Positions 732-17,848 of a stretch of 64,000 bases of DNA are shown here, in pieces. This DNA is from Nitrospira sp. (GTDB lineage Bacteria; Nitrospirota; Nitrospiria; Nitrospirales; Nitrospiraceae): the NCBI GenBank assembly GCA_041743145.1, contig JBGTNJ010000032.1:4692-68691 (forward strand). The letters run 5' to 3'. A program made the position numbers and the translations under genes. Each line of letters starts with the position of its first letter. Position 1 is the first letter of the stretch. A model generated the notes under the pieces. The model was not told the DNA's origin and made no database searches. It worked only from the letters and a program-made list of their open reading frames with translations.

Positions 732-2933
732 ATGGTGCAGCTCGAACACATCGAACGACTTCTCAACGCCGAGCATTGGAATCCTCGTGAACTGCTCGGC
801 CCCCATCGCACCTCTGTGAATGGGTCGGACTCACTCGTGATCCGAACCTTTGCGCCGGACGCCAGCGAGACACAAGTGATTCTAGATACCCCCGGCCACA
901 GGCGGATACAGATGAACCGCGTTCATGACTCAGGATTGTTTGAGGCGATCCTGGACGCGCCGAAGGGAACGCTGAAATACCGACTCCGGGTCACCGATTC
1001 TCAAGGAACCGTCACGGAACGCCACGATCCCTACGCCTTCCCTCATTTGATCAGCGACCATGATCTGCACCTGTTTGCGGAGGGGAATCTTTTCAAAGGC
1101 TACGAAAGACTGGGCGCTCATCTCACAACCGTCGACGGGATCACCGGCGTTCATTTCGTCGTCTGGGCCCCGAACGCCATGCGAGCCAGCGTCGTCGGCG
1201 GCTTCAACCACTGGGACGGCCGGTGCCATCAGATGATGAGTCGTGGGTCGACCGGGATCTGGGAGTTGTTCGTCCCGGACATTCCCGAAGGAACACTCTA
1301 CAAATACGAAATCCGCTCTCGCCATGTCGACGCACCCTTTACCAAGGCTGATCCGTACGCATTCTCAGCGGAACTGAGGCCTCGCACGGCATCAATCGTT
1401 CGAAACCTTTCCGGCTATCGATGGAACGACCGAGCTTGGATGGACGCCCGCGCTACGCGTGATCCGCTTACTGCGCCCATGTCCATCTACGAGGTGCATC
1501 TGGGATCCTGGATGCGGGTACCTGACGAGGAGGGCCGTTGGCTGACCTATAGAGAACTGGCCGATAAACTTATTCACTATGTCAAACACATGGGTTACAC
1601 CCACATTGAACTCATGCCGGTCACCGAACATCCGTTCGACGGATCGTGGGGCTACCAAGCCACCGGCTACTTTGCCGCCACTAGTCGATTTGGCCCGCCG
1701 GAAGACTTCATGGCGTTCGTCGATGCCGCTCATCAAGCGGGAATCGGCATCATCATGGACTGGGCACCGGCGCACTTCCCTGACGATGCGTTTGGGTTGG
1801 CTTGGTTCGACGGCACCCACCTATATGATCACGAGGATCCGCGCCTCGGCTATCATCCGGAGTGGAAGAGCCGCATCTTCAACTACGGCCGTGTGGAAGT
1901 GAAGAATTTTCTCCAGAACAGTGCGCTCTTCTGGTTGGACAAATACCATATCGACGGTCTTCGTGTGGACGCGGTGGCGTCGATGTTGTACCTGGACTAT
2001 GGGAGAAAAGCCGGCGAGTGGATCCCCAACCAGTTTGGAGGGAACGAAAACTTGGCAGCTGTCTCCTTCCTCAAAGAATTGAACGTGCTCGTCCATCAGG
2101 AACATCCCGGTGCCATGACAATCGCCGAGGAATCCACCGCCTGGCCAGGCGTTTCAAAGCCGACGTATACGGGAGGTTTAGGGTTCACCTTCAAATGGAA
2201 TATGGGCTGGATGCACGACACCTTGGAATACTTTTCGCTCGACCCAGTGCACCGCAAGCACCACCAGAACAAGATTACATTTGGGCTCGTCTACGCCTTC
2301 CATGAGAATTTTGTCCTAGTCCTGTCCCATGACGAGATTGTGCACGGCAAAAAAGCACTCCTCGACAAAATGCCGGGGGACGATTGGCAGCGATTTGCCA
2401 GTCTTCGGGCCCTGTACGGCTTCATGTACGGCCATCCCGGTAAGAAGATGCTCTTCATGGGCGGCGAATTCGGCCAATGGTGGGAATGGAACCACGACGA
2501 CAGTCTGCAGTGGCACTTGTGTCAGCATGAACCGCACGCCGGTCTGCAACGGTACGTCCGCGACCTCAACTGGCTCTACCGCAACGAGACGGCACTCCAC
2601 GAAGTGGATTTCGATTGGACCGGGTTCCAGTGGATCGATTTCCACGACGCTGAACATTCTGTCATCGCCTTTCTCCGGAAAGCCAAAAACCAGCAGGACC
2701 TTGTCGTTGGCGTCTGCAACTTCACGCCGGTTCCACGCTATGGATACCGGATCGGCGTGCCCTCTTTGGGCCACTATCGTGAGCTATTGAACAGCGACGC
2801 TGAAGCATATGGCGGAAGCAACATGGGCAACGGGGGTGGTGTGATGGCCGAGCCGATTTCCGCTCATGGATTTCCGAACTCGATCGTCCTGACCCTGCCT
2901 CCGCTCTCCGTCTTGTACTTCAAAGCGGGATGA
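732..2933 (+). CDS. glgB: 1,4-alpha-glucan branching enzyme (GH13)
   Basis: 733 aa. Motifs WAPNA, YEVHLGSW, SWGYQ, RVDAVASM, AEEST, SHDE. RBS AGGAGG upstream. Confidence 0.97.
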   Translation: MVQLEHIERLLNAEHWNPRELLGPHRTSVNGSDSLVIRTFAPDASETQVILDTPGHRRIQMNRVHDSGLFEAILDAPKGTLKYRLRVTDSQGTVTERHDPYAFPHLISDHDLHLFAEGNLFKGYERLGAHLTTVDGITGVHFVVWAPNAMRASVVGGFNHWDGRCHQMMSRGSTGIWELFVPDIPEGTLYKYEIRSRHVDAPFTKADPYAFSAELRPRTASIVRNLSGYRWNDRAWMDARATRDPLTAPMSIYEVHLGSWMRVPDEEGRWLTYRELADKLIHYVKHMGYTHIELMPVTEHPFDGSWGYQATGYFAATSRFGPPEDFMAFVDAAHQAGIGIIMDWAPAHFPDDAFGLAWFDGTHLYDHEDPRLGYHPEWKSRIFNYGRVEVKNFLQNSALFWLDKYHIDGLRVDAVASMLYLDYGRKAGEWIPNQFGGNENLAAVSFLKELNVLVHQEHPGAMTIAEESTAWPGVSKPTYTGGLGFTFKWNMGWMHDTLEYFSLDPVHRKHHQNKITFGLVYAFHENFVLVLSHDEIVHGKKALLDKMPGDDWQRFASLRALYGFMYGHPGKKMLFMGGEFGQWWEWNHDDSLQWHLCQHEPHAGLQRYVRDLNWLYRNETALHEVDFDWTGFQWIDFHDAEHSVIAFLRKAKNQQDLVVGVCNFTPVPRYGYRIGVPSLGHYRELLNSDAEAYGGSNMGNGGGVMAEPISAHGFPNSIVLTLPPLSVLYFKAG

Positions 2934-2943
2934 CGACCCATTG

Positions 2944-4005
2944 TCAGTCACCGATCCGGCTCGGAACCGGAGTCGTCCTGTCGGACGGGGTCACGTAGGG
3001 ACGCCATTTCAACCCCAGGTCGAGAATGCGTTGCAGCAATGCAGGATACGGTAGTTCTATGCCTGCGGCCGAACTGGCAAAATCCTCGGTCGTCGCGATG
3101 TGCGGATTCGGGTTTGCTTCCAGCACGTAAACCTGTCCCGCTGAATCAAGTCGAAAATCGATCCTCGCATACCCGCTGAGTCCTAGATTCCGGTAGACAC
3201 GTTTTGCGAGACTCTGAAGAATCTGCCGCTGCGATTCCGTCAGGTCGCCCGCTTCGGTGGAACGGACACCGTATTTCTGCTGGTAGACTCGACTCCACTT
3301 CACCCGAGCTGTGGCGATCTTTCTGGTTTCTTCCGGCAATCGGCTCATATCGAGCTCCCAGACCGGCAAGACTTGCAGCCGTTGATTGCCCATCACACCG
3401 ACATACAGTTCACGTCCTTCGACATATCGTTCGACCAGCGCGCCCGTGCCGACGCTTTGGTGGATGAACTTGACTCGTTCTTGCAACTTGTCGTCATCCT
3501 CCACGATCGAGGCCTGAGAAATGCCGAGAGACGCCTCCTCTGAGACGGATTTCACGATCAACGGGAATGCCAGCTCCTTAGGTCGCTTGACCAAACGACC
3601 TAACGGTACCGTGATGAACTCCGGAATGGGGATGCGGTGGTAATAGAGAATCTTCTTGGCCAAGCCTTTGTCGCGGGCCAGCATCAATCCTCTGGGGTTA
3701 CAGCCTGTGTACGGCACCTTGAGCAATTCGAGATAAGACACCACGTTCTGATCATAGATGGCCACCCCGCTGAATTCCTCAAGCAAATTGAAGGCGATGT
3801 GAGGTTTCCATTCATCCACTGTCTGACGGATCACGGCGAGTTCGTGTTGGACACCGAGCGGACGCACCTCGTGTCCAATCTCCCGGAGCGTGTTGACCAC
3901 TTCGTATTCGGTCCTCCACTCAACGCTACTGAGATCCACCCCCTCGACCGTATCAGGCGGAACGAGGTCTTCATGCACCAGCACGAGGACGCGTAATGGC
4001 TTCAT
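2944..4005 (-). CDS. D-Ala-D-Ala-ligase-like ATP-grasp protein, probably not a true Ddl
   Basis: 353 aa. ATP-grasp motifs PYTG, DK..K, PLIVKS, LVERYVEGRE, RIDFR, EANPNP. Lacks the Ddl GGxSxE and HGxxGEDG motifs. 4-nt overlap with the upstream peptidase. Confidence 0.85.
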   Translation of the reverse strand: MKPLRVLVLVHEDLVPPDTVEGVDLSSVEWRTEYEVVNTLREIGHEVRPLGVQHELAVIRQTVDEWKPHIAFNLLEEFSGVAIYDQNVVSYLELLKVPYTGCNPRGLMLARDKGLAKKILYYHRIPIPEFITVPLGRLVKRPKELAFPLIVKSVSEEASLGISQASIVEDDDKLQERVKFIHQSVGTGALVERYVEGRELYVGVMGNQRLQVLPVWELDMSRLPEETRKIATARVKWSRVYQQKYGVRSTEAGDLTESQRQILQSLAKRVYRNLGLSGYARIDFRLDSAGQVYVLEANPNPHIATTEDFASSAAGIELPYPALLQRILDLGLKWRPYVTPSDRTTPVPSRIGD

Positions 4006-5105
4006 AAGGCTACCCGATGATGGCCGCTATGCAGATAATTCATCGTTTGGACGGTCAGGAGAATGGTTACGTCGAGCTTGGCTTTTTCCTCGGAGCTGAC
4101 CAATGTGAGATCCTGCTCTCGACAGCGCGAAACGATATCTTCGAACACGCGGTCTATCGTATATTGATATTCTCCTGCCCACCCGGCCACTTCCCGACAG
4201 ACATCCCGGCGAATACGCGATAAAAACTGTGCCGCGGAGATACTGACCCGATGCGCGGGTGCAGAGGAAAAGATCCGCCGCAAGTCGCGATCATAGAACG
4301 TCGGATGAGGCATCCCGTAATGCGCCTGCTTCTGCTCGTAGTGTTCCCGCAGGGTCCGACGGAGCCGAGGCAGCGAGTCCACGCGTTGTTTGGTCGTCAC
4401 TAACGGCCGCGCGTTGACCAACGAGGCCATCAACCGGTCCATGTATTCCAGCTTCTTGCGCGCCGGCCAGTCCGCATACCGTTCCTGCCACATCGACTGT
4501 GGATTCAGCCAGACCGCGAAGGTTTCTGCAAAATCTTCGTCCGGATGGCTTTGTGCGTACCACATGTCGAGGTGGAGGACAAAGCTCTTGCTGTACGGTT
4601 TCGGTTTATAGAACTTGGGGTACGGTTGTGTTGATTTGCCGAAAATGGCTTGCCGGTCTCGGCGCCGACGAAGCCCGAAGGCGTTTTCGATGGCGTGGCC
4701 GGTTTCATGTCGGAGGATGCGCAGGCATCGATCGGGAGTACCCCCTTCGACTTCCAACATCTGTGCGAATTCCAGTCGAGCGAGGCGCGGATGTGCCAGG
4801 TAAAAAGGTATTGCGATGCCGGGCACGCCATCCGGTGAAAACCATTCGCTTGAGAGCCAGAAATGCGGACGAAAGAGGAGGCCTCGATCGCCCAGTTCGC
4901 GGTATAGCTGAGCAATGTGCTCGGTGATCTGACTCTGTTCCACGGTAAGATCAAGGTCGCAGAAACGGAGATCGAGAAGTTTCTCATCAGACCAACTGAC
5001 CCACGCCGGTTCCTCCGACGAACGATGCCGATGACTCTCCTGGTTGGAGATTGGTTCACAATGCGAGCCTGCTCTCGCTCTGCCTATCACGCGAAACCCT
5101 TTCAA
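4002..5105 (-). CDS. Putative zinc-binding metallopeptidase (zincin, Peptidase_Mx-like)
   Basis: HETGH (HExxH) and YAQSHPDEDFAETFAVWL. The TTG start overlaps the mscS stop (TTGA). Confidence 0.8.
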   Translation of the reverse strand: MKGFRVIGRARAGSHCEPISNQESHRHRSSEEPAWVSWSDEKLLDLRFCDLDLTVEQSQITEHIAQLYRELGDRGLLFRPHFWLSSEWFSPDGVPGIAIPFYLAHPRLARLEFAQMLEVEGGTPDRCLRILRHETGHAIENAFGLRRRRDRQAIFGKSTQPYPKFYKPKPYSKSFVLHLDMWYAQSHPDEDFAETFAVWLNPQSMWQERYADWPARKKLEYMDRLMASLVNARPLVTTKQRVDSLPRLRRTLREHYEQKQAHYGMPHPTFYDRDLRRIFSSAPAHRVSISAAQFLSRIRRDVCREVAGWAGEYQYTIDRVFEDIVSRCREQDLTLVSSEEKAKLDVTILLTVQTMNYLHSGHHRVAL

Positions 5106-6016
5106 TTGGAGGTTGGCTGGGCTGGTTGCAATCCTGCCACATGCAGCGGAGGCGGTGTTCCCTGTTTCGGCTCACCCCAGTAGATCGTTTGATGCGGGAA
5201 CGGGATTTCGATCCCTTTCGCATCAAAGGTCTTCTTAATGCGACGATTCATCTCCCGCCCCACCCGCCATTGTTTGATCGGCCGAGTCTTGATCCGACAC
5301 TTGATGATCACGGCTGAATCGGCAAATTGATCCACCCCCAACATTTCCAATGGCTCCAGAATATCCTCTGAAAACTGAGAGTCTTGGCGGAGTTCATCCG
5401 CGATGTCGCGCAGAACCGCCATGACTTCGTCAACATCTTCTCGATACGCGATGCCGACTTCGAAGAGGTAGAAGGCATAGACTTTGGTCATGTTCTTCAC
5501 CTTATCGATGACTCCATTCGGTACCACGTGCACATTCCCTGACAAATCCCGAAGGGTCACCGTCCGAAGTTTCACTTCCTCGACCACCCCTGCCACTCCC
5601 GCAATCTGCACGACATCGCCCACTCGGATCGAATCTTCGAGAAGGATGAAGAACCCCGAAATCACATCCTTCACCAAACTTTGGGCACCGAAGCCGATGG
5701 CCAATCCCCCGAGACCGGCCGCCGCCAAGATCGGCTTCAGATCGACTCCGACCTCCGACAAAATCATCATGCCTCCCACGGCAAAAATCACCACACGAGC
5801 CACGTCACGAATAACATGAGTCAGGGTCGTGGCCCGTTTTATCTGCACTTCGGTCGGCAACGTCCCTTCGTACACTTTCTGGAATCGATCTATCACTCTT
5901 TTGAGGATCGCGAATCCCAGAACCATCAAGACGCTGATGATCATGACTCGCAAACCCGACGTCGTGGACCATTCGACCCATCGCTCGATGACCTCCGTCA
6001 CATAGGAATCCGGCAT
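5102..6016 (-). CDS. mscS: Small-conductance mechanosensitive channel (MscS family)
   Basis: AAAGLGGLAIGFGAQSLVKDVISG, IRVGDVV, VPNG, GIEIPFPHQ. Start moved to ATG 6016, which has RBS GAGGAGG. Confidence 0.92.
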   Translation of the reverse strand: MPDSYVTEVIERWVEWSTTSGLRVMIISVLMVLGFAILKRVIDRFQKVYEGTLPTEVQIKRATTLTHVIRDVARVVIFAVGGMMILSEVGVDLKPILAAAGLGGLAIGFGAQSLVKDVISGFFILLEDSIRVGDVVQIAGVAGVVEEVKLRTVTLRDLSGNVHVVPNGVIDKVKNMTKVYAFYLFEVGIAYREDVDEVMAVLRDIADELRQDSQFSEDILEPLEMLGVDQFADSAVIIKCRIKTRPIKQWRVGREMNRRIKKTFDAKGIEIPFPHQTIYWGEPKQGTPPPLHVAGLQPAQPTSN

Positions 6017-6087
6017 GCCATACCTCCTCAAGTTAGGACATCTCACCCCGCGCAGACTCAACGTCCGGTGTTAAGGGCCATTCTCCG

Positions 6088-7953
6088 CTAAGAAGACAGG
6101 AATACGGTCGAACTGTAGGTTGGAATCGATACCGAAACTCCTTGAGGTGTAACAGAGAGCTGGGTCGGCATAGAACCTTGAGCAGTCCCACCGAATTTCT
6201 TGTCCATGGAATCGAGCCCTAGCCGCCATGTGCCCTGCGGCTCGATCAATCTCACCGTAACCGGCGACTTATTGAATCCAAGGATCAACAGCGACGCAGC
6301 GTTGTCTTGTGTCCAACGATGCACCACCAACACCTGGTTGTCCTCGAACGCCCAGACCCGATGGCGCCGAGTCGTGCCGTCTCCGGCGCCCAACGACGGC
6401 TCGTCTTTCCTGAGCTGGATCAACGCCTTGGTCCATCGCAATAACGCTGCTTGCCGATCATTGAGATCTTCATGACACAACCGACTTCGTTCGAAGGTCG
6501 CCGAGTCCTGGGGGTCAGGAATGTCTTCGGGATTCCAGCCGAAGTGGGCAAACTCTCTTCGACGGCCCTGTCGCACCGCTTCGATCAAATCGGGATCGCT
6601 ATGTTCAATGAAATACTGAAACGGCGCGGTCTCGCCATATTCCTCGCCCATGAACAAGAGCGGGATGTTCGGCGAGAGCAGAATGAGCGCGCTGGCAACC
6701 CTCAGAGCCTCGTCCGGCAACTGGGTGCTCAAGCGATCTCCGACAGCTCGGTTGCCGATCTGATCGTGGTTTTGTGAAAAGACCACGAGCTGTCCGGGCG
6801 ATACCTGTTGTGACGAGTTCCCATGGCGGCGCCTGCGATGTGCTGAATACTGTCCGCTGTACACAAATCCCTCACGAATGGCTTTCCCAAGATCGTGTAG
6901 CCCATGAAAGTCCTCATAATAGCCGCGCGATTCTCCGGTCAACACCACACGCAGCGCATGATGGAAATCGTCGCTCCATTGCCCGTCAAGACCATAGCCA
7001 CCGATCGCAGGTGGTTCGATGATTCTCGTGTCGTTCAAGTCGCTCTCCGCGATGACGAAGATCTGCCGCCTGAGCGCCGCGGCCTGCTTTTGGACCGATG
7101 ACGCCAGTTCTTTCAAAATATGGTTGGCGCTGAAGTCGAAAATACCGTGAATCGCGTCCAATCGCAGCGCATCGATGTGGTACTCGGTCACCCAATACAA
7201 CGCGTTGTCGATGACGTACCGCCGGACCGCGTCACTGTCCGGCCCGTCATAGTTGACCGCCGATCCCCACGGAGTTCGATACTTGTCGGTGAAATAGGGG
7301 CCGAACTCGCCCAAATAATTCCCCTCCGGGCCGAGATGGTTATAGACGACGTCCATGATCACGGCAATGCCCATCCCATGACAGGCGTCTACCAGTCGTT
7401 TCAATCCGTCAGGTCCTCCGTACGTGGATTGCGGCGCGTAGGGATACACCCCGTCGTAGCCCCAGTTTCGCCCTCCTGGAAACTGGGCGACCGGCATAAG
7501 TTCGATCGCCGTGATCCCAACGGTATCTTTTAGGTAGGACAAGTGGGGAATGATCGCCTCGAACGTTCCCTCTTTCGTAAAGGTCCCGACGTGCAACTCG
7601 TAGATGATCAGGTCTTTCAACGGGAGCCCCCGCCATCCTCCGTCAGTCCACGTGAAAGCGTGGGGATCGACGACAGCTGAAGGGCCATGGACCCCATCTG
7701 GTTGAAATCGGGAGGCAGGATCCGGTCGCGCCTTCTGTCCGTTGAGCAGATAACGGTATCGCGCGCGCGGATCGACTTCCTCAACGATGGTTTCGAAATA
7801 CCCCTGCGAAGCGGGCTGCATCGGAATGGACGTTCGATCCTGCTCGACTAACTCCACCGCAACCTGCTGTGCGAACGGTGCCCAGACGTTAAACCGAACT
7901 TGATTGGTTCCGATCATCTTAGCCCCGAGATCCAACTGCCATGTTTCATCCAT
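6088..7953 (-). CDS. treZ: Malto-oligosyltrehalose trehalohydrolase (GH13)
   Basis: 621 aa. PDPASRFQPDGVHGPS, NWGYDGV, LRLDAIH, IAESDLND, QNHDQIGNR, LFMGEEY. Confidence 0.95.
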   Translation of the reverse strand: MDETWQLDLGAKMIGTNQVRFNVWAPFAQQVAVELVEQDRTSIPMQPASQGYFETIVEEVDPRARYRYLLNGQKARPDPASRFQPDGVHGPSAVVDPHAFTWTDGGWRGLPLKDLIIYELHVGTFTKEGTFEAIIPHLSYLKDTVGITAIELMPVAQFPGGRNWGYDGVYPYAPQSTYGGPDGLKRLVDACHGMGIAVIMDVVYNHLGPEGNYLGEFGPYFTDKYRTPWGSAVNYDGPDSDAVRRYVIDNALYWVTEYHIDALRLDAIHGIFDFSANHILKELASSVQKQAAALRRQIFVIAESDLNDTRIIEPPAIGGYGLDGQWSDDFHHALRVVLTGESRGYYEDFHGLHDLGKAIREGFVYSGQYSAHRRRRHGNSSQQVSPGQLVVFSQNHDQIGNRAVGDRLSTQLPDEALRVASALILLSPNIPLLFMGEEYGETAPFQYFIEHSDPDLIEAVRQGRRREFAHFGWNPEDIPDPQDSATFERSRLCHEDLNDRQAALLRWTKALIQLRKDEPSLGAGDGTTRRHRVWAFEDNQVLVVHRWTQDNAASLLILGFNKSPVTVRLIEPQGTWRLGLDSMDKKFGGTAQGSMPTQLSVTPQGVSVSIPTYSSTVFLSS

Positions 7954-8104
7954 CGCGTTTCTCCTTCGGTTTATCCCACCTTACCGATGGACCACGCCAT
8001 AAACAAGATGGCACAGGCCTCTTGCATAAGCTTGTTGATACCAGTAAGAGATGGTACGGCGGAACGAAGCCCAGTGTCCGCATTCCCTTGAAAAGGAGCA
8101 CAAC

Positions 8105-10240
8105 ATGAGAATTTGGCCGGGGAAACCCTATCCACTCGGAGCCACATGGGACGGCGAAGGGGTGAACTTCGCCCTCTTTTCAGAACATGCCACGGCCGTT
8201 GAACTGTGCCTGTTCGATGGACCTGATTCCGACCAAGAATCCCATCGTATTCGCATCGAAGAACGGACGGATCAAGTCTGGCACACATACATACCCGGTC
8301 TCTGGCCAGGACAACATTATGGGTATCGGGTCCACGGACCCTATACACCCGAAGAGGGGCATCGTTTCAATCACCACAAGCTCTTGATCGATCCTTACGC
8401 CAAGTCAATCGCGGGAACGGTCGAGTGGTCGGACGCCATGTTCGGCTATCGGATGGGCGACCCCAAGGTAGATCTCTCCTTTGACACTCGTAATAACGCA
8501 TCAAACATTCCCAAGTGTGTCGTTATCGATCAGGCCTTCACCTGGGGCGGCGATCGATTGCTGAAAACCCCATGGGACAAGACGGTCATCTACGAAATTC
8601 ACGTCAAGGGATTCACGGCACAGCATCCCGATGTGCCGGACCACATGCGGGGTACGTATTCCGCGTTGACGACGCCCGAGGTCATCGATCACCTTTTGAA
8701 TCTGGGAGTCACCGCCGTCGAGTTGCTACCGGTCCATCACTTCGTGCGCGACAAGCATCTCTCCGATCGAGGACTGACCAACTATTGGGGTTACAACACC
8801 ATCGGATTTTTCGCTCCCGATATCCGCTATACCGTCTCGCCTGTCCGCGGACGGGGCGTCCGCGAGTTCAAGTCGATGGTCAAGACGCTCCACAGCTCCG
8901 GCATCGAGGTCATCTTGGACGTCGTCTACAACCATACGGCGGAGGGAAACCAGCTGGGCCCGACCCTCTCATTCAGAGGGATCGACAATGCCGCCTATTA
9001 CCGACTGATGGACAACGAGAAACGCTATTACATGGACTACACCGGCTGCGGCAACACGCTGAACGTGACACATCCCCGGACGCTTCAACTCATCATGGAC
9101 AGCTTGCGGTATTGGGTCACGGAAATGCATGTGGATGGCTTTCGGTTCGACCTGGCCTCCACCCTCGCCAGGGAATTGCACGCCGTCGACCGGCTGAGCG
9201 CTTTCTTCGACATCTTGCATCAAGACCCCATCCTCTCCCAGACCAAACTGATCGCGGAACCCTGGGACGTCGGAGAAGGAGGGTATCAAGTCGGCAATTT
9301 TCCTGTGGGCTGGGCCGAGTGGAACGGCAAGTATCGGGACACGATCCGGCGATACATCAAAGGAGACGGTGGCCAGATGGCGGAGCTTGCGTATCGCATG
9401 ACCGGCAGCAGCGACCTCTACAGCACGAGCGGACGTCGCCCCTTTGCCAGCATCAACTTCATCACAGCGCACGACGGATTCACGCTCCATGACCTCGTGT
9501 CCTACAACGACAAGCACAACGAAGCTAACGGAGAAAACAACCAAGACGGCACGAACGACAATGACAGCTGGAATTGCGGCGTAGAAGGACCAAGCAGCGA
9601 TCCCGCAATTCTCGAGTTGCGAGAGCGCCAGAAACGGAATTTCCTGACGCTCCTGTTTCTCTCCCAAGGTGTTCCGATGCTCTGCGGTGGCGACGAGATC
9701 GGGCGGACGCAAAAGGGAAATAACAACGCGTATTGTCAGGACAATGAGATCAGCCGGTTCGACTGGAACTTAGATCACGCACAGTCCAATTTACTGGCGT
9801 TCGTCAGACAGCTCATCGCCTTTCGCAAAAAACATCCAGTCCTTCGCCGACGTCGCTTTTTTCAGGGACGCCATATCAGAGGGTCCGAAGTCAAAGATCT
9901 TTCATGGTTTCGACCAGACGGCAAGGAGATGACCGACGAAGATTGGAATGCGGGGTACTCCAAATCACTCTCCCTCCGACTGGCTGGTGATGCCATCGCC
10001 GAGAGGGATCAGAAGGGACGCCCGATCGTCGACGACACGCTGTTGATCCTTCTGAATGCCCACCATACCCCGCTGGCTTTCACCTTGCCGGCCCACAAAC
10101 GCGGGATCCGCTGGCATGCAGTAGTGGACACCTCACTTTCAGGGGAAAACGAAAAGCAGGTCAGTGCCTTCAAAGGAGGCGAGCAGTACGAAATGGAAGC
10201 TCGATCGATCGCCGTGCTGCGACTCGACAACCAACATTAG
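8105..10240 (+). CDS. glgX: Glycogen debranching enzyme / isoamylase
   Basis: [46 protein letters not shown] 8105 follows RBS AAGGAG. Confidence 0.96.
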
Positions 10241-10419: not shown

Positions 10420-11250
10420 ATGGTCTTGGACAATTGGCTGGAGGCGTTTCGAGAATCGGCGGAATCGGCCCTGTCACTGACTGCTTCGTACCTTCCCAAG
10501 CTCCTGGGCGCCATACTGCTCGTACTGGCTGGTTATCTCCTCGCCCGGATCGTCGGTGCCGGCACGGCTGGACTACTGAAACTGGTCGGTCTGGATCGTC
10601 TGCTCGCCAACACACCCATACAAACCCTCTTCAATAGAGCCGGCTCCACTAAGACAGGATCCGATGTCCTCGGCCTGCTGGTCTTCTGGGTGATCTTTCT
10701 CCTCTTCGGAGTCACGGCCACGGATATGCTCGGCCTCCCAACCGTCTCGGCCACACTGACCGACCTAGCCCACTACCTTCCAAAAGTCGGACTCGCGGTC
10801 CTGATCATCGTGCTGGGCATGCTGGCTGCGAGCTATATCAAGGAGCTGATCGGTTTGGCCTGCACGTCGGCCGGCATTTCTCAGGGTGCGATCGTGGCCC
10901 AGACGTTCTATGTAGCCGCGATTCTTGTGGTGTTTGTGACGGCGGTCAACGAGCTGGGAATCGACACGACCCTTTTAAATAGCACGATTATGATCGGCTT
11001 CGGTGGACTCATCGCGGGAGCCGCACTTTCTTTCGGGCTGGGCGCTCGAGGGGCGGTCGCCAACTTGATCGCCGCCCACTACCTCAGGCAGGTATTTCGA
11101 GTCGGGCAAACGATCCGAGTCGGTGACATCCAAGGGACCATCGCAGCCCTGACCCCCGTTGCGATTGTTGTGGATACGCCTACGGGACGGGTCGTCGTGC
11201 CGGCCTCACATTTTCAAGAGTCCAGTGCGACGATCAAGAGCGCGGTCTGA
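10420..11250 (+). CDS. MscS-related membrane protein with 'conserved TM helix' repeats and a shortened cytoplasmic domain
   Basis: 276 aa. Two YLPK.. hydrophobic repeats, LSFGLG, FRVGQTIRVGDIQGTI (MscS beta domain), VVVPAS. Confidence 0.75.
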   Translation: MVLDNWLEAFRESAESALSLTASYLPKLLGAILLVLAGYLLARIVGAGTAGLLKLVGLDRLLANTPIQTLFNRAGSTKTGSDVLGLLVFWVIFLLFGVTATDMLGLPTVSATLTDLAHYLPKVGLAVLIIVLGMLAASYIKELIGLACTSAGISQGAIVAQTFYVAAILVVFVTAVNELGIDTTLLNSTIMIGFGGLIAGAALSFGLGARGAVANLIAAHYLRQVFRVGQTIRVGDIQGTIAALTPVAIVVDTPTGRVVVPASHFQESSATIKSAV

Positions 11251-11253
11251 GCG

Positions 11254-12147
11254 ATGGACGCGGAACCGCGACTGACCCTTGCCTACTTCAAGTCCCACCC
11301 GCTAGAAGTCACAAAACAATTGGAGACATGGTCGGCAGATGACGTGGCCTCGGTAATGGCGACATTCTCAGCACAAGACATGGCATCTGTGTTGGAGCAC
11401 TTTCCTCTTGCACAAGCAGCAGCGGTCCTCGAGCTTCTGCCGCAGGACACGACGGTCGAAATCATTACCCTGTTACCGACCGCATCGGCCATCGGCATCT
11501 TGCGGCAGCTTGAGCCATCCGTTCAGCACAACTTGCTGACCATGCTGGATCGACGCGTCGGACCAAGTCTTCGACTGAGCATGACCTATCCCGAGGGTAC
11601 GGCTGGAAGCCTGGCGGATCCTCGAGTGGTGATTCTTCCGCCTGACATTCCAGTATCGGCTGCCTTGGAACGGATCAAACGCGATCCAACCCATGCGACA
11701 TACTATCATTACGTCGTGGAGCGGACTGGAATCCTTGTGGGCCTGGTAACGACGAAAGAACTTCTGGCCGCGTCCCCAGACCGGCTCATCGCAACGATCA
11801 TGAACGAGCAAATCGCAACCATAGCTGCAGAGGCGACCGAGGACGAATTACTCCAAGCCCCTCATTGGCGGCTGTATCATACCTTGCCGGTCGTCGATCG
11901 CCAAGGTCACTTTCTTGGTGCGCTCCGCTACAGGACCTTGCGTCGCATTGAAGCGCAATCTGAGGCAAAACCGACGGCGGGGCCTCTGCCACAAGCCTTG
12001 TTGCAGATGTGGGAAGGCTACGCCTTGATCGGTCTCCACATTATGACCGATCTCGCCCAGGCGATCGAAACGGGTGTCTCGGAACAGATACCGATGCTCC
12101 CGAAGGAGGGCAAGGAAACCGATGTCACTTCACCGGAAACTCCATGA
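11254..12147 (+). CDS. MgtE-like cytosolic protein (MgtE N-domain plus CBS pair) without the transport domain
   Basis: 297 aa. YPEGTAGSLADP, YYHYVVERTGILVGLV, LPVVDRQGHFLG. No 5-TM MgtE membrane domain. Confidence 0.75.
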   Translation: MDAEPRLTLAYFKSHPLEVTKQLETWSADDVASVMATFSAQDMASVLEHFPLAQAAAVLELLPQDTTVEIITLLPTASAIGILRQLEPSVQHNLLTMLDRRVGPSLRLSMTYPEGTAGSLADPRVVILPPDIPVSAALERIKRDPTHATYYHYVVERTGILVGLVTTKELLAASPDRLIATIMNEQIATIAAEATEDELLQAPHWRLYHTLPVVDRQGHFLGALRYRTLRRIEAQSEAKPTAGPLPQALLQMWEGYALIGLHIMTDLAQAIETGVSEQIPMLPKEGKETDVTSPETP

Positions 12148-13417
12148 AACGTTCATCATCGACCATCCCGCGGAAGCCGGACAGCTTCTGGAGTCCTTCG
12201 AGATCGGCGAGATCGTCCGCCTGATCGAGTCGGTTCCACCGAATTCCATCGCCGTGCTCCTGTCATCCATGAATCCCGCCGTCGCCGGTGAAACACTGGG
12301 AGCGCTGCCCGATGAGCTGGGGATTCGGGTGGTGCGCGAAACATCCCCCGGGGACGCGGCGGGGCTGCTGGCGCGATTGGAACGAGACCGACGGAAGGCG
12401 ATCCTCCGGCGTCTTGCCCGCCCGCTCGCCAAGGAGATTCGCCTGTTCATGGAATACCCAGCCGAATCGGTCGGCAGCCTGATGGATGCGGGGGTATTCG
12501 CGCTACCAGAGGACCTCACGGTCGAAGCGGCCGTCACGCAGGTACGGGTCAGGGCGCCCAAAGATCTTCATGACATCTACGTGATCGACCGCCGCCGGTA
12601 CCTCGTCGGCATGTTCTCGGTTCGGGACCTGCTGCGGCCCAATCCGTTGGATCGCTTGCAGTCCGTCATGCGGCGTGATGTGCCGACCATTCATCCCATG
12701 GAGAATCGCGAGGAAATCGTCGCTCTCTTCGCCGGGCGGCGATTGGTGACTATTCCCGTCGTGGATCTCGACGGACGACTGCTGGGTGTGATCAAGAACG
12801 AGGATATCATCAAAGCGAGCCAAGAAGACGCCACTGCGGACCTTCAGACGATGGTCGGCGCCAGCAAAGATGAGCGTGCCCTCTCCTCCATGTGGTTTTC
12901 CGTGCGGAAACGGCTGGGTTGGCTGCAGGTCAATCTGGTCACGGCCTTTCTGGCTGCGACCGTTGTCGGCATGTTCGAAAGCGTCATCGCGCAATTCACA
13001 GCCTTAGCCGTCTTGCTGCCGGTTGTGGCCGGCCAATCCGGCAATACCGGCGCGCAGTCGTTGGCGGTCGTCATGCGCGGACTCGCCCTCCGCGACATCA
13101 GGCCAGCCCAATGGTTCCGGGTCGTCACCAAAGAAAGCGGAGTTGCGCTGTTCAACGGTCTCGCAGTAGCCGCGACCACCTGCACCGCGGTCTACTGGTG
13201 GAGCAGTTCTGCAGGTCTGACGATGGTGATCGGTATCTCGATGGTGACGTCGATGTGCATCGCGGGACTGGCCGGCGCCGTCATTCCCATCATTCTCAAA
13301 TCGCTGAATCAGGACCCGGCCCAGTCATCCTCGATCATTTTGACGACGGTGACCGACGTCGTCGGGTTTTTCAGTTTTCTCGGACTGGCGACCATCTTCG
13401 CCCATCTCCTTGTGTGA
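12122..13417 (+). CDS. mgtE: Magnesium transporter MgtE (full length)
   Basis: YPAESVGSLM, CBS pair, RLGWLQVNL, GQSGNTGAQS, DPAQSS..ILTTVTDVVG with the conserved TM Asp. ATG 12122 follows GAAGGAGG. Confidence 0.92.
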   Translation: MSLHRKLHETFIIDHPAEAGQLLESFEIGEIVRLIESVPPNSIAVLLSSMNPAVAGETLGALPDELGIRVVRETSPGDAAGLLARLERDRRKAILRRLARPLAKEIRLFMEYPAESVGSLMDAGVFALPEDLTVEAAVTQVRVRAPKDLHDIYVIDRRRYLVGMFSVRDLLRPNPLDRLQSVMRRDVPTIHPMENREEIVALFAGRRLVTIPVVDLDGRLLGVIKNEDIIKASQEDATADLQTMVGASKDERALSSMWFSVRKRLGWLQVNLVTAFLAATVVGMFESVIAQFTALAVLLPVVAGQSGNTGAQSLAVVMRGLALRDIRPAQWFRVVTKESGVALFNGLAVAATTCTAVYWWSSSAGLTMVIGISMVTSMCIAGLAGAVIPIILKSLNQDPAQSSSIILTTVTDVVGFFSFLGLATIFAHLLV

Positions 13418-13539: not shown

Positions 13540-14325
13540 CTAGTAATTGAACAGGATCGTAGTCAACAAGATGTGCTGCATCTGATCAGGCCGTGGGGTC
13601 TCCCTTCTGCTGAGATACTGGTTCATATACCCAATTTCTACCACTGTCGTCCGGCTGACTCTGTATGAAAACCCGACGATCGCTCTGTTTTGGTCAAAAC
13701 CTTCCCGAATGGATGTGGCATCAGCATGGGTCAGATTCACAAAAATTTCATCGGCGAGAATCAGGTTGACCCCTGGAGCGATCCAGGGAATCGGAATCGA
13801 GACCTTCAGGAGGTGACGATACCGGTAGCCGATATCCTCGGTATCCGGAATGTCGAAAAATCGTTGCTCAAAGCGACTTCGACTCCCAAAGGTTCCGAAT
13901 GATAATTCGTCGCTCCACAGCCATTGCTGCCAGCTGCGGTACTCATTGAAATCTTCCTCGAGCGCGAATGGACGGCTTGTGGGAACCCAGTCCCCACCAA
14001 GCCAGACGCTGTTGCGTTCGTTCAAGGCATACCCCAGGGCGGGACGAATGATGCCTTGCGAAAATCGGGAGGAATCGTTTCCAAAACGTCCTTGCGCCTC
14101 CATCGAATATCTGAAGCGGCTCCATCTTGGATCACTCCCCGCAAATGATCCCGTGGCAAAGACAACTCCCCAAGTTTGAAAATCCTCCTCGATCTCTCGC
14201 GCTTCGACAGGTTCTGACACTCCTCACAGATGTGCAGTGAGGAGGATGGCGAAGAAGACGGTCCCGAGGATGTCTATTCCATCGAGCGGTACCTTCGATC
14301 CCCTGCCAACCAGCGACCGCTGCAT
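13540..14325 (-). pseudogene. DUF2490-like outer-membrane beta-barrel protein with an in-frame TGA in the signal peptide
   Basis: ATG 14325 (AGGAGA upstream) reads MQRSLVG...ILGTVFFAILLTAHL*GVSEPVEA/REIEEDFQTW. TGA at 14224-14226. Downstream RSRFEQRF, GFDQNRA and VEIGYMNQY are DUF2490-like. Confidence 0.65.
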
Positions 14326-14677
14326 ATAGCCACCATTCTCCTGAGTGGTTCCGTTGTAATCAGAATCGTGTCGATCTGTTCTTCTGTGATTGTGCGGTAG
14401 TTACTGAGCAGCTCTTGGGGAGGAATGTCCTACTGAGGCGGCGTTCACCGCACTGTACGGTGGCAATAGGATTTGTGAAGCGCCATGCTTAACCGATGAC
14501 CAAGCATCTACCTTTGGAATTTACCGGCGGCGTCCTTAACGGCAGTAAAGTTACTTAACCACCTCTTACTACGAATCAAGTCATTTTGCCATAACTATTG
14601 GCAATAACTCGCGAAGTCACCGCCTCCGTGAGCATCTCTATGAACGAGCCGATCTCGATTGATCGTAGGCCTCTGCC

Positions 14678-15703
14678 TTATGCTTTGCGAGACCGTCTGG
14701 CAATTCCCCGTAATAACCGCCCGAGCAAATCCGCGCCGGTGATCAGCCGAGGTTGTTCTGTCCACAGAAGAACCGTGTCATGGGTAATGAGGTGATCGGC
14801 GGGCGACTCCGGGTCAAAGCTGAGCTGCGCCAGAACTTTCCCGAGCGGTTCGTCTCGATTTCGTACGATCACGGGCCGATGGCAATAGGCGTGGGGGTCA
14901 GTATGCTGACCCATGAAGACGGTGTGACGTAGAAACCCATCGGCATCCATGATGCACTGCGGCTCATTCATCTCGTCCGTGATGACCACCCAAGCCTTGT
15001 CCGAAGCATTGACCTGTCGAAGGAATGGGTCATCCGGCGACGTCTGGTACGCGGGAAACATAGGAATTCCATCCCGAACTGGCAGCTGTATGATACTGAT
15101 CGGATCCACCGAAACTCCTTCTTGGTCGACCGGAATATCGTCGATGGTCAAAAAGTTGAGCGCCCCTATAGCCTCGATACGGCCCACTTCTGACTTCTCG
15201 TCCTCCATATGGCGACGAAGCAGTTCTTTGATCTCCGCCTCCCGGAGGTAGGCGATCGTTTCCTTGCCCAGCCAAGCATCCAACAGCATGGCTGAGGGTT
15301 TCACTACGGGGAACAAGATCACACGGTAGGCCTGCAACCATTGCGAGAAAACCGCAGCCATCCTGACCGCCCGACGGGAAAAGTACGCCTGCGGCAGGAT
15401 TTCTCCGAAAATCGTGATGAAGAAGGTCGAAAAAAGGAATGCGGTCACTCCGGCCAGCACCGAATTCGAGAGGAGCGTGAGGAGCACGTTGATGCTGACG
15501 TTGGCCCAAAGAATAGTGGCCAGGATATCATTGGGATGATCGCGCAGCCGTAGTACTTTTTGGGCATCGTGGCTCCCGCTTGCCGCTTCCGCCTCCAACC
15601 GCAACCGACCGAGGCTGAAGACCGCCAAATTCAAGCCCGACATCAAGGCCGATTGGCTGAGACAGAGCGCGATCCCGACCCAGGTCAACAGATCAACTAC
15701 CAT
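14678..15703 (-). CDS. CNNM/DUF21 transmembrane-domain protein (Mg2+/Co2+ transport-related)
   Basis: SALMSGLNLAVFSL, LATILWANVSIN, IFGEILPQA. The C-terminal region is only weakly CBS-like. Confidence 0.8.
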   Translation of the reverse strand: MVVDLLTWVGIALCLSQSALMSGLNLAVFSLGRLRLEAEAASGSHDAQKVLRLRDHPNDILATILWANVSINVLLTLLSNSVLAGVTAFLFSTFFITIFGEILPQAYFSRRAVRMAAVFSQWLQAYRVILFPVVKPSAMLLDAWLGKETIAYLREAEIKELLRRHMEDEKSEVGRIEAIGALNFLTIDDIPVDQEGVSVDPISIIQLPVRDGIPMFPAYQTSPDDPFLRQVNASDKAWVVITDEMNEPQCIMDADGFLRHTVFMGQHTDPHAYCHRPVIVRNRDEPLGKVLAQLSFDPESPADHLITHDTVLLWTEQPRLITGADLLGRLLRGIARRSRKA

Positions 15704-15873
15704 AGTGCCCTCTCTCTAGACAAACTGCGGCTGCAGGGAACACAACGGAGGTCTCTTTGAAGTGGCGATCGGCAAGAGCCGGCTCAGGAACTCAATTGAT
15801 GGGCAATTCCCTCTTGGTTCCTGCTCGTCCTGTTCCTGCCCGAGGCCCATGATAGGCACGGTCCCCCCAGGCT

Positions 15874-16980
15874 TTAACCGGCCCCCCGTCGTTGGCCTGT
15901 GGTCGGATCGAACAGGTGAAGGGTCGCTCGTGGTGCTGAGACCGCCACTCGATCCCCGATCTTCGGGGCAAACCCAGCTTGTGCAGAACCGATTATGGTG
16001 ATGGATTCGTTGTGGTCATTGAGCTCGACCGTCACCCACAAGGTCGGGCCCGAAGGTTCGGTGAGGCGAGCGACGCCGAACCCCACACCCTTATCTCCCG
16101 GATCGTTTGCCGGGCTCACAACGATGTCTTCCGGTCTGAGGCCGACGGTCACAATCTGCTCTTGCTCAACTGTCGGTCCGTCTGGAGGTCTTGTGAGATG
16201 CAATGGTCCAGCTTGGATGCCATCGATGCTTACCCGCGCCGAGAGCAAATTCATCGACGGGTAACCCATGAAGCCTGCCACGAAGAGATTGGCGGGAGTG
16301 GCATAGATATCATGAGGCCGGCCGATCTGCTGAATCCGTCCCTGGTTAAGCGCCGCAAGCCGGTCACCTAGCGTCATGGCTTCCGTTTGATCGTGGGTCA
16401 CATAGATCGTCGTGACCTTCAGCTCCTTGTGGAGGCGGAGCAACTCCGCGCGCATGGAAGCGCGCAATTGCGCATCTAGATTTGACAACGGTTCATCCAA
16501 CAAAAACAGTCTGGGCTTCCTGATGAGGGCCCGCCCCAAGGCGACTCGTTGTCGTTGGCCGCCGGAGAGTTCCCGTGGTCGCCGATCGAGGAATGATGCC
16601 AGACCAAGAAACCCTGCCACCCGTTGCACTTCTTCCTCGATGCGCCTCCGTTCGAGGCGCTTGGCGCGGGGAGCAACGCTCAATGGGAAGGCCATATTTT
16701 CGCGCACGGTCATGTGCGGGTACAGGGCATAGCTTTGAAAAACCAACGCCACGTCGCGCTCACGCGGCTCTAGGTCGGTCACATCGTTCCCGTCGAACAA
16801 GATACGACCGGCAGTCGGCTGATCGAGACCGGCGAGGAGACTCAGCAGCGTAGATTTGCCGCATCCGGAGGGACCCACGAGCACGAAGAACTCACCGTCA
16901 TGCACCGTCAAGGTGAGGGGATGGAGGATGGTCTTTTGCCCGATACGTTTCTCGATCAGCTCTATACGGACTTCGGCCAT
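15874..16980 (-). CDS. Carbohydrate ABC transporter ATP-binding subunit (MalK-like)
   Basis: GPSGCGKS, FQSYALYPHMTV, LSGGQRQRVALGR, LLDEPLSNLDA, YVTHDQTEA. Confidence 0.95.
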   Translation of the reverse strand: MAEVRIELIEKRIGQKTILHPLTLTVHDGEFFVLVGPSGCGKSTLLSLLAGLDQPTAGRILFDGNDVTDLEPRERDVALVFQSYALYPHMTVRENMAFPLSVAPRAKRLERRRIEEEVQRVAGFLGLASFLDRRPRELSGGQRQRVALGRALIRKPRLFLLDEPLSNLDAQLRASMRAELLRLHKELKVTTIYVTHDQTEAMTLGDRLAALNQGRIQQIGRPHDIYATPANLFVAGFMGYPSMNLLSARVSIDGIQAGPLHLTRPPDGPTVEQEQIVTVGLRPEDIVVSPANDPGDKGVGFGVARLTEPSGPTLWVTVELNDHNESITIIGSAQAGFAPKIGDRVAVSAPRATLHLFDPTTGQRRGAG

Positions 16981-16984
16981 TGCC

Positions 16985-17848
16985 TCATCCTTTCACACTG
17001 CCGGCCGTTAGCCCGGCAATGATGTGGCGTTGAAACACCAGGGCGAGAGCAGCGACCGGCAGGGTCACCACCAGGGAGGCCGCCGCCAAATCGCCCCAAG
17101 GAATTTCATACAACCCTGGGAACAAAGCAACCGCGACCGGCGCGGTGCGAGTGCTATCACTGGCCGTCAGCGTCAGGGCGAACATGAACTCATTCCACGA
17201 ATAGATGAAGACTAATAGCGCGGCAACAGCGAGTCCAGGTCGCGCTAGTGGCAACATGATGGTCAGGAAGGCCTGCAAGGGTGTGCAGCCGTCGATCCGA
17301 GCAGCCTGGTAGAGCTCCTTGGGAAGCTGTTGAAAGAAACTCGTTAAGAGCCACACGGCGAGCGGCAGGGAATAGACCGCATGAGTCAGTCCTACTGCGA
17401 AGAGAGTATCCCTCAACCCGAAGTCCCGCATCAGGAGATATAAGGGACTGATGACGGCGATCGGCGGGAACATCGACGTCACGAGGGCCACCCCCAATAT
17501 CACCGACTTACCGGCGATCGGTAGCCGTGCAAGGGCGAATGCACAGAACGCACCAACCATAATGGAGGTCGCCGTCGCACTCGCCGCCACGACCATGCTG
17601 TTCGCGAGCGACCGCGGCAATGACGACTTGAGCAGGACCCGATCATAGTGCACGCCGGTCACGCGCTCCGGGAATAGAGGAGGCAGGCGCACGAGATCCT
17701 GATCGGGCTTTAGCGATGTGATCACTTGCCAGAGCACTGGTCCGAGACAGAACAACCCGACAAAAAGAAGAACGCATGCAGTAAGGCCTCGGGTACGGAG
17801 CCAGATCATCATAGTTGACCCGGCCTGATCGTCATGACGAAGCATCAA
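16985..17848 (-). CDS. Carbohydrate ABC transporter permease (MalG/SugB-like)
   Basis: EAA-like motif LYQAARIDG; WNEFMFAL. Confidence 0.92.
   Translation of the reverse strand: MMLRHDDQAGSTMMIWLRTRGLTACVLLFVGLFCLGPVLWQVITSLKPDQDLVRLPPLFPERVTGVHYDRVLLKSSLPRSLANSMVVAASATATSIMVGAFCAFALARLPIAGKSVILGVALVTSMFPPIAVISPLYLLMRDFGLRDTLFAVGLTHAVYSLPLAVWLLTSFFQQLPKELYQAARIDGCTPLQAFLTIMLPLARPGLAVAALLVFIYSWNEFMFALTLTASDSTRTAPVAVALFPGLYEIPWGDLAAASLVVTLPVAALALVFQRHIIAGLTAGSVKG

Follow-up and report, generated by a model that had tools for sequence, protein, structure and literature searches.

The locus analysed here raises the question of whether three overlapping genes lying within a glycogen and trehalose gene cluster, and coding for a mechanosensitive channel, a metallopeptidase and an ATP-grasp enzyme, constitute one functional unit, and what reaction the two enzymes could carry out. 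The window, a 64,000-nucleotide stretch of a Nitrospira sp. contig, includes on the minus strand a co-directional run that starts with treZ (nucleotides 6088 to 7953), which codes for a malto-oligosyltrehalose trehalohydrolase (755 bits with TIGR02402, whose cut-off is 539). It is followed by mscS (5102 to 6016), a gene coding for a putative cytoplasmic HExxH zincin of 367 amino acids (4002 to 5105), and a gene coding for a putative non-canonical Ddl-like ATP-grasp amide ligase of 353 amino acids (2944 to 4005). The upstream border of the cluster is glgX (8051 to 10240, plus strand; TIGR02100 at 1071 bits), which is divergent from treZ, while downstream the ATP-grasp gene is convergent with glgB (732 to 2933, plus strand; NF003811 at 1036 bits), the two stop codons being separated by 10 nt. 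The treY gene of the same genome is found on a different contig.

The ORF coordinates agree with the earlier note, which had placed the trio after treZ on the same strand with overlaps of 4 nt at both junctions. The sequence TTGA (5105-5102) includes the stop codon of mscS and the TTG start of the zincin gene, and ATGA (4005-4002) includes the stop codon of the latter and the start of the ATP-grasp gene. This TTG is the earliest possible start for the zincin, the sole in-frame alternative being a GTG at 5090, 15 nt downstream; the overlap with mscS is supported by a close relative, L115, in which an ATGA occupies the exact position of the TTG. The mscS ORF (5102-6061) is open back to a TTG at 6061, but the start is likely the ATG at 6016, located 7 nt after GAGGAGG and 71 nt downstream of treZ, which defines a protein of 304 amino acids. 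This protein has hydrophobic transmembrane segments and matches PF21088, PF00924 and PF21082 (TM2/3, β-domain and C-terminal domain, respectively) above cut-off. Comparison with four syntenic relatives yielded dN/dS values of 0.05-0.19 with dS >1 for treZ, mscS and the zincin and ligase genes (dS could not be estimated in one of the mscS comparisons), and all four genes are therefore under purifying selection. Promoter and terminator scans of the locus gave signals below shuffle expectation, none of them informative, and no riboswitch or leader element was matched in Rfam.

The ATP-grasp protein was modelled by AF2 with a pLDDT of 88.9, and the top Foldseek matches of the model were all Ddl (E 3e-26, TM 0.73, 22-26% identity). 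The profile of the D-Ala-D-Ala ligase C domain, PF07478, matches at 92 bits. When the protein is aligned with E. coli DdlB and with the Ddl of the same genome, the result agrees with the earlier claim that the ATP and Mg motifs, RIDFR (residues 281-285) and EANPNP (296-301), are kept and that the D-Ala-binding motifs GGxSxE and HGxxGEDG are missing. All the DdlB residues that contact ATP, Mg and the acyl-phosphate (K97, K144, E180, E187, R255, D257, E270 and N272) are retained, the catalytic residues K113, K152, E192, E199, R281, D283, E296 and N298 of the ligase being invariant across the family alignment, and so is the lid-loop Tyr of Ddl, within a lid loop that is about 12 residues longer. 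The D-Ala1 site (DdlB E15 and H63/E68) is replaced by the motifs hxHxDLVPP(D/E) and NLLEEF, and at the D-Ala2 site (Gly276, Ser281 and Leu282) NTSPGMTxxSL becomes NPNPxIAxxED, where E307/D308, nearly invariant in the family, replace S281/L282. The rebuilt pockets, at E75/E76 and E307/D308, are lined by acidic residues. Neither a signal peptide nor a transmembrane segment was found in the ligase (maximum Kyte-Doolittle value, window of 19, 1.01), and its Pfam and NCBIfam matches are all to Ddl or generic ATP-grasp profiles, with none to RimK.

Since both pockets are replaced, the scores are below every NCBIfam Ddl cut-off (126.6 versus 243 for NF002378 and 108.9 versus 245.65 for TIGR01205) and a canonical ddl, scoring 301.9, is present elsewhere in the genome within murB-ddl-ftsQ of the dcw cluster, the protein is predicted from its sequence not to be a D-Ala-D-Ala ligase, as the earlier note had proposed. 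These observations also bear on a cell-wall role, in which the pair would act like VanA and VanX to remodel the termini of peptidoglycan precursors through a depsipeptide or dipeptide. The Ddl and Van ligases are the closest relatives in sequence and fold, and a ligase next to a zinc hydrolase recalls VanA/VanX. However, the residues that bind both D-Ala molecules are replaced, the scores are about half of the Ddl and Van family thresholds, the hydrolase is an HExxH zincin rather than an M15 enzyme of the VanX type, the canonical ddl is in the dcw cluster, and the neighbourhood contains neither vanH, vanR/S nor mur genes. Such a role is thus very improbable.

The zincin includes a helix with HETGH (residues 133-137), a basic RRRR run, a glutamate helix with HPDEDFAETF (HPDEDFAET at 187-195), and a helical C-terminal domain of 150 residues; a Pro/Tyr-rich loop specific to the family is also present. 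No variation is seen in the family alignment at H133, E134, H137 or E190/E194, and the HExxH motif and the downstream glutamate helix, which would provide the third zinc ligand, are intact in 101 of 103 distant representatives. No signal peptide or transmembrane segment was detected (maximum Kyte-Doolittle value, window of 19, 0.72), so the earlier description of both motifs in a protein lacking a signal peptide is borne out. PF15887 (Peptidase_Mx) matches just above the cut-off (28.2 bits versus 27) and covers only profile positions 90-165 of 236, which by sequence makes the zincin a marginal, distant member of this family. A PDB sequence search found no relative, and the AF2 model (pLDDT 82, N-terminal residues 1-29 disordered) had M34 and Peptidase_Mx zincins as weak best Foldseek matches (lowest E 0.07; TM 0.2-0.3, not above 0.28), none reaching E ≤0.001. 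The mean column identity across phyla is 72% and the family has a median pI of 9.1. The RRRR run, located beside the catalytic helix, is invariant. The tail of the protein, G-R-H-R-(I/V)-x-(L/M), is disordered in the AF2 model, yet it is kept in distant members; its last residue is partly fixed by the ATGA/GTGA overlap.

The zincin and ligase genes were claimed in the earlier note to be coupled, and they are indeed conserved neighbours. Among 80 loci from at least six phyla (Nitrospirota, Acidobacteriota, Planctomycetota, Bdellovibrionota, Methylomirabilota and Pseudomonadota), the ligase gene is found directly downstream of the zincin gene in 69, with a 4-nt stop/start overlap in 44. Both genes, with abutting coordinates, are present in 54 of the 301 Nitrospirota genomes surveyed, and every genome of this set with an intact copy of one also has the other; the only cases of zincin alone are a pseudogene and fragments at contig ends. 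One Acidobacteriota clade has the zincin with no adjacent ligase. Each of the two proteins is conserved between phyla at 54-66% identity, and clustering at 50% identity gives about 1,050 clusters. ORF clustering in the 80 loci revealed no third conserved gene other than lineage-specific neighbours, nor any conserved storage or secretion gene, and no fusions were found among the top 150 family representatives, all of which are single-domain proteins of about 340 amino acids. The possibility of an anti-phage defence or mobile module was discarded, as PADLOC gave no defence match for the pair, which occupies stable loci in 47 of the 50 Nitrospiraceae genomes sampled. No published description of the pair was found in the literature searched, although comparative work on amidoligases might mention the pairing.

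The inclusion of mscS in the unit, on the other hand, did not hold. The genome carries two copies of the pair, which were duplicated as a pair. The copy A locus has the organization LMW-PTP-zincin-ligase beside ttcA and lacks mscS. Copy B, the one in the window, is found between glgX and glgB as treZ-mscS-zincin-ligase, an organization fixed in at least 12 Nitrospiraceae-type genomes (the window, L012, L013, L103, L110, L111, L113, L115, L117, L119, L153 and L160), with glgB at the same downstream border in L012, L013, L110, L111, L113, L115, L117 and L119; the copy B locus of L108 has no mscS. The genes mscS and treZ accompany the pair in only one Nitrospiraceae sub-clade, that of copy B, while none of the 78 loci outside that clade has either gene within 6 kb of the pair, and other Nitrospiraceae have treZ-mscS next to glgB without the pair. 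The conserved unit is the zincin-ligase pair and not the trio. At conserved and active sites, copy B shows no change specific to its clade with respect to copy A, and a functional divergence of copy B was rejected, since beyond these sites only a C-terminal tail of 15 residues in its ligase sets it apart. A cyanobacterial horizontal origin of copy B, suggested by the tree and an NCBI name, was also rejected, as the 'Petrachloros' contig in question has Nitrospira-type synteny and 85% glgX identity. The treZ-(mscS)-zincin-ligase synteny survives saturated synonymous divergence in several genera, which makes it plausible that copy B is co-regulated with the genes of the osmoadaptation island.

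This distribution bears on the possibility that the pair makes and degrades an amide-linked compatible solute, such as a dipeptide-type osmolyte, under osmotic stress, with MscS as the release route on downshock. Copy B is always located within an island of trehalose, glycogen, MscS and MgtE genes, and G345, a 100% complete genome, carries it as its sole copy. There is also a precedent in the osmotically induced NAGGN operon, where asnO-ngg is accompanied by a glutamyl aminopeptidase gene (PA3459-PA3461) (PMC8070244). The absence of mscS and treZ from the 78 other loci, the location of copy A by ttcA and an LMW-PTP gene, and the existence of treZ-mscS without the pair argue against this explanation, and the unchanged pocket of copy B leads one to expect the same product everywhere, so that we consider it unlikely. 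Moreover, MscS is a non-specific valve.

The reading that we favour, with a probability of roughly 0.6, is that the two proteins are a candidate module in which a single amide bond is built by a ligase and broken by a hydrolase, that copy B of this module is wired into the osmoadaptation island, and that MscS is not one of its components. The ligase would activate a carboxylate with ATP as an acyl-phosphate and join it to an amine, generating one amide (peptide-type) bond. As the Ddl chemistry and the extended lid loop appear to be kept while both substrate pockets appear rebuilt and rich in acidic residues, the substrates would be small, most likely an amino acid or short peptide and a cationic amine. 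The zincin would cleave the same or a neighbouring bond, and the pair would thus set the level of its product; alternatively, the zincin could act on a bond other than that made by the ligase, or be regulatory. The module is widespread and self-contained, consisting of two translationally coupled genes with no third dedicated gene. Copy B arose within the Nitrospiraceae and became fixed downstream of treZ-mscS, where it is probably co-transcribed with the trehalose and mechanosensitive-channel island, to judge only from the spacing of the genes, and MscS would be a neighbour inherited with the island.

As the target of the pair, a macromolecule would account for the very high conservation (54-66% identity from phylum to phylum) and for the basic, Arg-rich character of the zincin no less well than a small molecule would. 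Such an activity could resemble that of RimK/RimB or TTL/CCP, in which proteins are tagged reversibly: the ligase would extend a conserved protein at its C-terminus or at a side chain, perhaps on the disordered basic tail of the zincin itself, and the zincin would trim the added residues. The unusual conservation of both proteins across phyla, the lack of a dedicated third gene, the strict 1:1 translational coupling, the invariant RRRR run in a basic zincin, the conservation of its disordered tail and the acidic ligase pockets are all consistent with tagging. Yet the nearest relative of the ligase is not RimK, LysX or TTL but Ddl, which joins small molecules under a lid loop that closes, and the gene overlap accounts in part for the residue with which the tail ends; protein tagging is accordingly held to be doubtful. 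Also doubtful, and put at rather low odds, is a version in which a new and widespread system for reversible amide-tagging acts on some conserved macromolecule rather than on a free metabolite. The target might then be the zincin itself, with its conserved, disordered basic tail docking in the acidic pocket of the ligase, and the dedicated Nitrospiraceae copy would place the tagging under an osmotic or glycogen regulon. By analogy with the metallopeptidase-like N domain of the cyanophycin synthetase CphA1, the ligase might instead elongate a non-ribosomal amino-acid polymer and the zincin make primers or trim chains. In CphA1, an ATP-grasp polymerase works together with a cryptic metallopeptidase site, at which the polymer is cut into primers (PMC9262961). 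A charged polymer would be well matched to pockets that are acidic in the ligase and basic in the zincin. The chance of this is slim, since the pair has neither a Mur-ligase-like nor a second ligase domain, storage and secretion genes are not conserved nearby, and polymers are not known to be accepted by a closed active site like that of Ddl.

Of the bacterial enzymes that have not been characterised, the zincin and the ligase rank with the better conserved, and the pair is near-universal in the Nitrospiraceae, the main nitrite oxidisers. Knowledge of the bond that the candidate module acts upon would reveal a new reaction of the ATP-grasp enzymes or else a post-translational modification new to bacteria, and would correct the systematic mis-annotation 'D-alanine--D-alanine ligase family'. 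The Nitrospira copy linked to treZ-mscS offers osmotic shift as a condition under which to seek the product.

The make-and-break logic proposed for the pair is also that of VanA/VanX, glutathionylspermidine synthetase/amidase, RimK/RimB and cyanophycin synthetase/cyanophycinase. The ligase shares with DdlA, DdlB and the VanA-type enzymes the three-domain ATP-grasp fold and the ATP, Mg and acyl-phosphate residues, but differs from Ddl at the E15, H63/E68, G276 and S281/L282 sites, in its longer lid loop, and in the absence of a mur/dcw context. The logic of a ligase with a zinc hydrolase is common to VanA and VanX, although VanX belongs to M15. RimK and RimB, which together with RimA carry out the glutamylation and trimming of ribosomal protein S6, also combine an ATP-grasp ligase and a reversing hydrolase in a small self-contained operon, but RimK belongs to another ATP-grasp family and RimB is not an HExxH zincin. 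With Peptidase_Mx (PF15887; PDB 4l7a) and the M34-type zincins (the lethal-factor catalytic domain and PPEP-1/Zmp1) the zincin has in common the HExxH helix followed by a glutamate helix, and it differs from them in a Pfam match limited to 76 of 236 positions, its cytoplasmic location, the Pro/Tyr-rich loop and the 150-residue helical C-terminal domain. The CA_C2195-type metallopeptidase-like protein (PMC4000134) was rejected as a relative because it belongs to a different, M28-like clan. The NAGGN operon combines a dipeptide-forming ligase and a peptidase under osmotic regulation (PMC8070244), but Ngg, which is GNAT-fused, comes from a different enzyme family and the amidotransferase AsnO is needed as well; neither was seen beside the pair. 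CphA1 with cyanophycinase resembles the pair in that amide synthesis by an ATP-grasp enzyme is functionally linked to a peptidase site of the zinc type, with one product serving both (PMC9262961). However, CphA1 is one multidomain protein with an extra Mur-ligase-like domain and an inverted HxxEH site, while the pair consists of two separate single-domain proteins.

The minus strand of the window carries four co-directional genes, treZ (6088-7953; TIGR02402, 755 bits), mscS (5102-6016), an HExxH zincin gene (4002-5105) and lastly an ATP-grasp ligase gene (2944-4005), which converge with glgB (732-2933, plus strand); glgX (8051-10240, plus strand) is divergent from treZ. The zincin gene ends and the ligase gene begins within one ATGA, and a TTGA likewise joins the mscS stop to the first possible zincin start, confirming the gene arrangement with 4-nt overlaps described in an earlier note. 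The sole alternative in-frame start of the zincin is a GTG located 15 nt downstream of the TTG; the mscS/zincin overlap is credible because a close relative has an ATGA at precisely the position of this TTG. The open frame of mscS reaches back to a TTG at 6061, and the ATG at 6016, preceded by GAGGAGG, coincides with the start point of the homologues. A hydrophobic N-terminus and transmembrane segments are lacking from both the zincin and the ligase, in agreement with the peptidase having been read as lacking a signal peptide, and all the motifs named for the two proteins in the earlier note were found in the window sequence.

One genome per species was scanned, and the 80 loci recovered belong to Nitrospirota, Acidobacteriota, Planctomycetota, Bdellovibrionota, Methylomirabilota and Pseudomonadota. 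The earlier note had made its proposal depend on conservation of the neighbours in other genomes, and the adjacency of zincin and ligase holds: in 69/80 loci the zincin gene is immediately followed by the ligase gene in the same orientation, 44 of these loci having the 4-nt overlap, and among 301 sampled Nitrospirota genomes, of which 56 have the zincin and 54 the ligase, the coordinates abut in 54/54 carrying both. The two discrepancies correspond to a zincin pseudogene and contig-end fragments. The pair is present in 47/50 Nitrospiraceae genomes and was not found in the searched genomes of most other Nitrospirota families. The 11 loci without an adjacent ligase include two cut by a contig end and nine from Acidobacteriota; five of these acidobacterial genomes were searched further, and a complete pair was found elsewhere in one, a full-score ligase elsewhere in two, and only a sister ATP-grasp of 40% identity in the remaining two. 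The loci concerned in this acidobacterial clade are L038, L041, L044 and L047, and L092-L096; the zincin of L041 is followed by a TerC-type membrane gene in place of the ligase, and in L096 the sister ATP-grasp adjoins a CarD-like gene. L072, labelled 'Bifidobacteriaceae', clusters with copies from Vicinamibacterales and Lysobacterales, and its label looks wrong. Decayed copies were also seen occasionally: in a third-type copy (L112, G270:C1:376044-378064) the ligase is interrupted by an in-frame TGA, and another (G188:C10:7382-7876) has two stops in the zincin, with no ligase found; both are consistent with joint loss of the two genes. Clustering of all neighbouring ORFs in the 80 loci revealed no third gene conserved across phyla, and neither an Rfam element upstream of the pair nor a match of the pair to a defence family was found. 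The pair, as the conserved unit, is strictly co-inherited and translationally coupled.

The genome of the window (G000) has a second pair, copy A, on contig C29 (L011), with zincin at 2818-3897 and ATP-grasp at 3894-4916, both on the plus strand and overlapping by ATGA as in the window's pair, copy B, to which they are 61-69% identical. Copy A is flanked by a divergent ttcA, by a low-molecular-weight phosphotyrosine-phosphatase (LMW-PTP) gene and by a convergent Na+:dicarboxylate (dicarboxylate/amino-acid) symporter (DAACS) gene, and mscS is absent from this locus. A survey of genomes with two copies defined two fixed orders, ttcA / LMW-PTP - zincin - grasp / DAACS for copy A, the commoner Nitrospiraceae locus, and glgX / treZ - mscS - zincin - grasp / glgB for copy B. 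The latter was found in the window, in L012, L013, L110, L111, L113, L115, L117, L119, L153 and L160, and on contig L103, which ends ahead of the ligase gene; mscS is missing from L108, where the order is treZ - zincin - grasp - malQ, and one complete genome (G345) has copy B only. These loci span several GTDB genera, with zincin identity down to 64% and dS >1, and dN/dS is 0.05-0.19 for all four genes wherever dS is estimable. The genes of copy-B loci overlap or lie up to about 130 nt apart, which makes co-transcription likely; a scan for consensus promoters and terminators gave no informative signal. A cyanobacterial origin of two copy-B entries, suggested by their NCBI names, was rejected, since the contigs show Nitrospira-type synteny; L103 (GCA_975968785.1, protein P0019, 'Petrachloros mirabilis') has the window gene order, with glgX 85% and treZ 76% identical, and is a Nitrospira-type contig within a cyanobacterial assembly whose taxon label looks wrong.

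Other Nitrospiraceae have treZ - mscS with no pair after mscS (G324, G349, G319, and G331, in which glgB directly follows mscS), and treZ / glgB without mscS also occurs. This demonstrates that treZ-mscS exists without the pair and is older than its arrival; MscS is part of the trehalose cluster, and the pair was inserted downstream of it a single time. The trio of MscS, zincin and ATP-grasp proposed earlier as a unit is consequently a lineage-specific operon context only. Beyond glgX are a second MscS-like gene (PF05552; 10420-11250, plus strand) and genes for an MgtE_N/CBS protein, MgtE, DUF2490, a CNNM-domain protein and a MalK-type ABC ATPase (within 10420-13417, plus strand, and 13540-20060, minus strand). 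The glycogen/trehalose genes are bordered by two mechanosensitive channels and by Mg2+ transporters. The surroundings of copy B are an osmoadaptation and carbohydrate-reserve island; treY lies on a different contig from treZ (C113:14718-17585, 996 bits), and the TreY/TreZ pathway is therefore split in this assembly. The NAGGN operon (PMC8070244) is a genuine precedent for reading the pair as acting on an amide-linked osmolyte, but this reading is weakened by the independence of the pair from this context elsewhere. In the tree copies A and B are sister clades inside the Nitrospirota group, and copy B shows no clade-specific replacement at conserved positions, the sole difference being a 15-residue C-terminal ligase tail, which argues that its biochemistry should be that of the wider family.

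The ligase matched PF07478 with 92 bits and the NCBIfam Ddl models with only 127 and 109 bits (cut-offs 243 and 246), and a canonical ddl (302 bits) is located between murB and ftsQ on another contig of G000. Its AF2 model, built from 38 family members (pLDDT 88.9), superimposes on Ddl structures with a TM of 0.73 at 22-26% identity. When the ligase was aligned with DdlB of E. coli and with the Ddl encoded by G000, the residues for nucleotide, Mg and acyl-phosphate (DdlB K97, K144, E180, E187, R255, D257, E270 and N272) and the lid-loop Tyr216 proved to be kept, and they are invariant across the family. The two Ddl motifs reported missing are indeed absent: the D-Ala1 site (E15 in GGxSxE; H63/E68 in HGxxGEDG) is occupied by family-specific motifs, and the D-Ala2 site (G276, S281, L282) is replaced, with a Glu-Asp that is almost invariant in place of S281-L282. 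In this alignment the lid loop has about 12 extra residues. As judged from these residues, the ligase would retain the Ddl chemistry and act on substrates that differ from those of Ddl, and its acidic pockets suggest a cationic amine partner. The protein is thus Ddl-like and non-canonical, as had been proposed; pockets, score and genomic context place it outside the Ddl family, and it also falls outside RimK.

The zincin matched Pfam Peptidase_Mx marginally (28.2 bits, cut-off 27) over the HExxH-to-Glu-helix core, and a sequence search of solved structures found no relative. Its AF2 model (pLDDT 82) gave weak fold matches (best E 0.07, TM <=0.28) to M34-type catalytic domains, PPEP-1/Zmp1 and a Bacteroides Peptidase_Mx structure, and any relationship to Peptidase_Mx is a distant one at best. 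When 1.84 billion representatives were searched with a profile, 1,051 clusters were obtained at E <=1e-30, and every one of the best 150 was a single-domain protein of about 340 residues. Over a cross-phylum alignment of 12 sequences the mean column identity is 72%, and over 48 sequences it is 64%; invariant features are HExGH, a basic LRRRRxR run directly after the catalytic helix, a Pro/Tyr-rich loop and SHPDEDFAETFAVW, and the family is basic (median pI 9.1). In the AF2 model the C-terminal tail (residues 355-367, window 4002-4040), with the consensus G-R-H-R-(I/V)-x-L/M, is disordered, yet it is recognisably kept in representatives of <50% identity; the ATGA/GTGA shared with the start of the ligase gene partly fixes its final residue.

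The pair, an intact HExxH zinc site together with an intact ATP-grasp core whose Ddl scaffold has rebuilt pockets, is a real module, a putative ligase/hydrolase system. The ligase would form one amide bond via an acyl-phosphate, and the zincin would hydrolyse that bond or an adjacent one. Small substrates are favoured because the scaffold and the retained, longer lid loop are of the small-molecule ligase type; a less favoured candidate is a macromolecular target, perhaps the zincin's own tail, and in its favour are the extreme conservation of both proteins, the richness of the zincin in Arg and the absence of a third gene. A polymer/primer model of the pair, drawn by analogy, has a precedent in CphA1 (PMC9262961). 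No description of this zincin/ATP-grasp pair was found in the literature searched, Iyer et al. 2009 being outside the reach of the search; what the present analysis adds is the two-locus structure found in Nitrospiraceae, the demonstration of treZ-mscS as older than the pair and occurring without it, the perfect co-occurrence count, and the lack of a copy-specific active-site change. The putative working logic of ligase and hydrolase resembles that of VanA/VanX, RimK/RimB, GspS and CphA/cyanophycinase.
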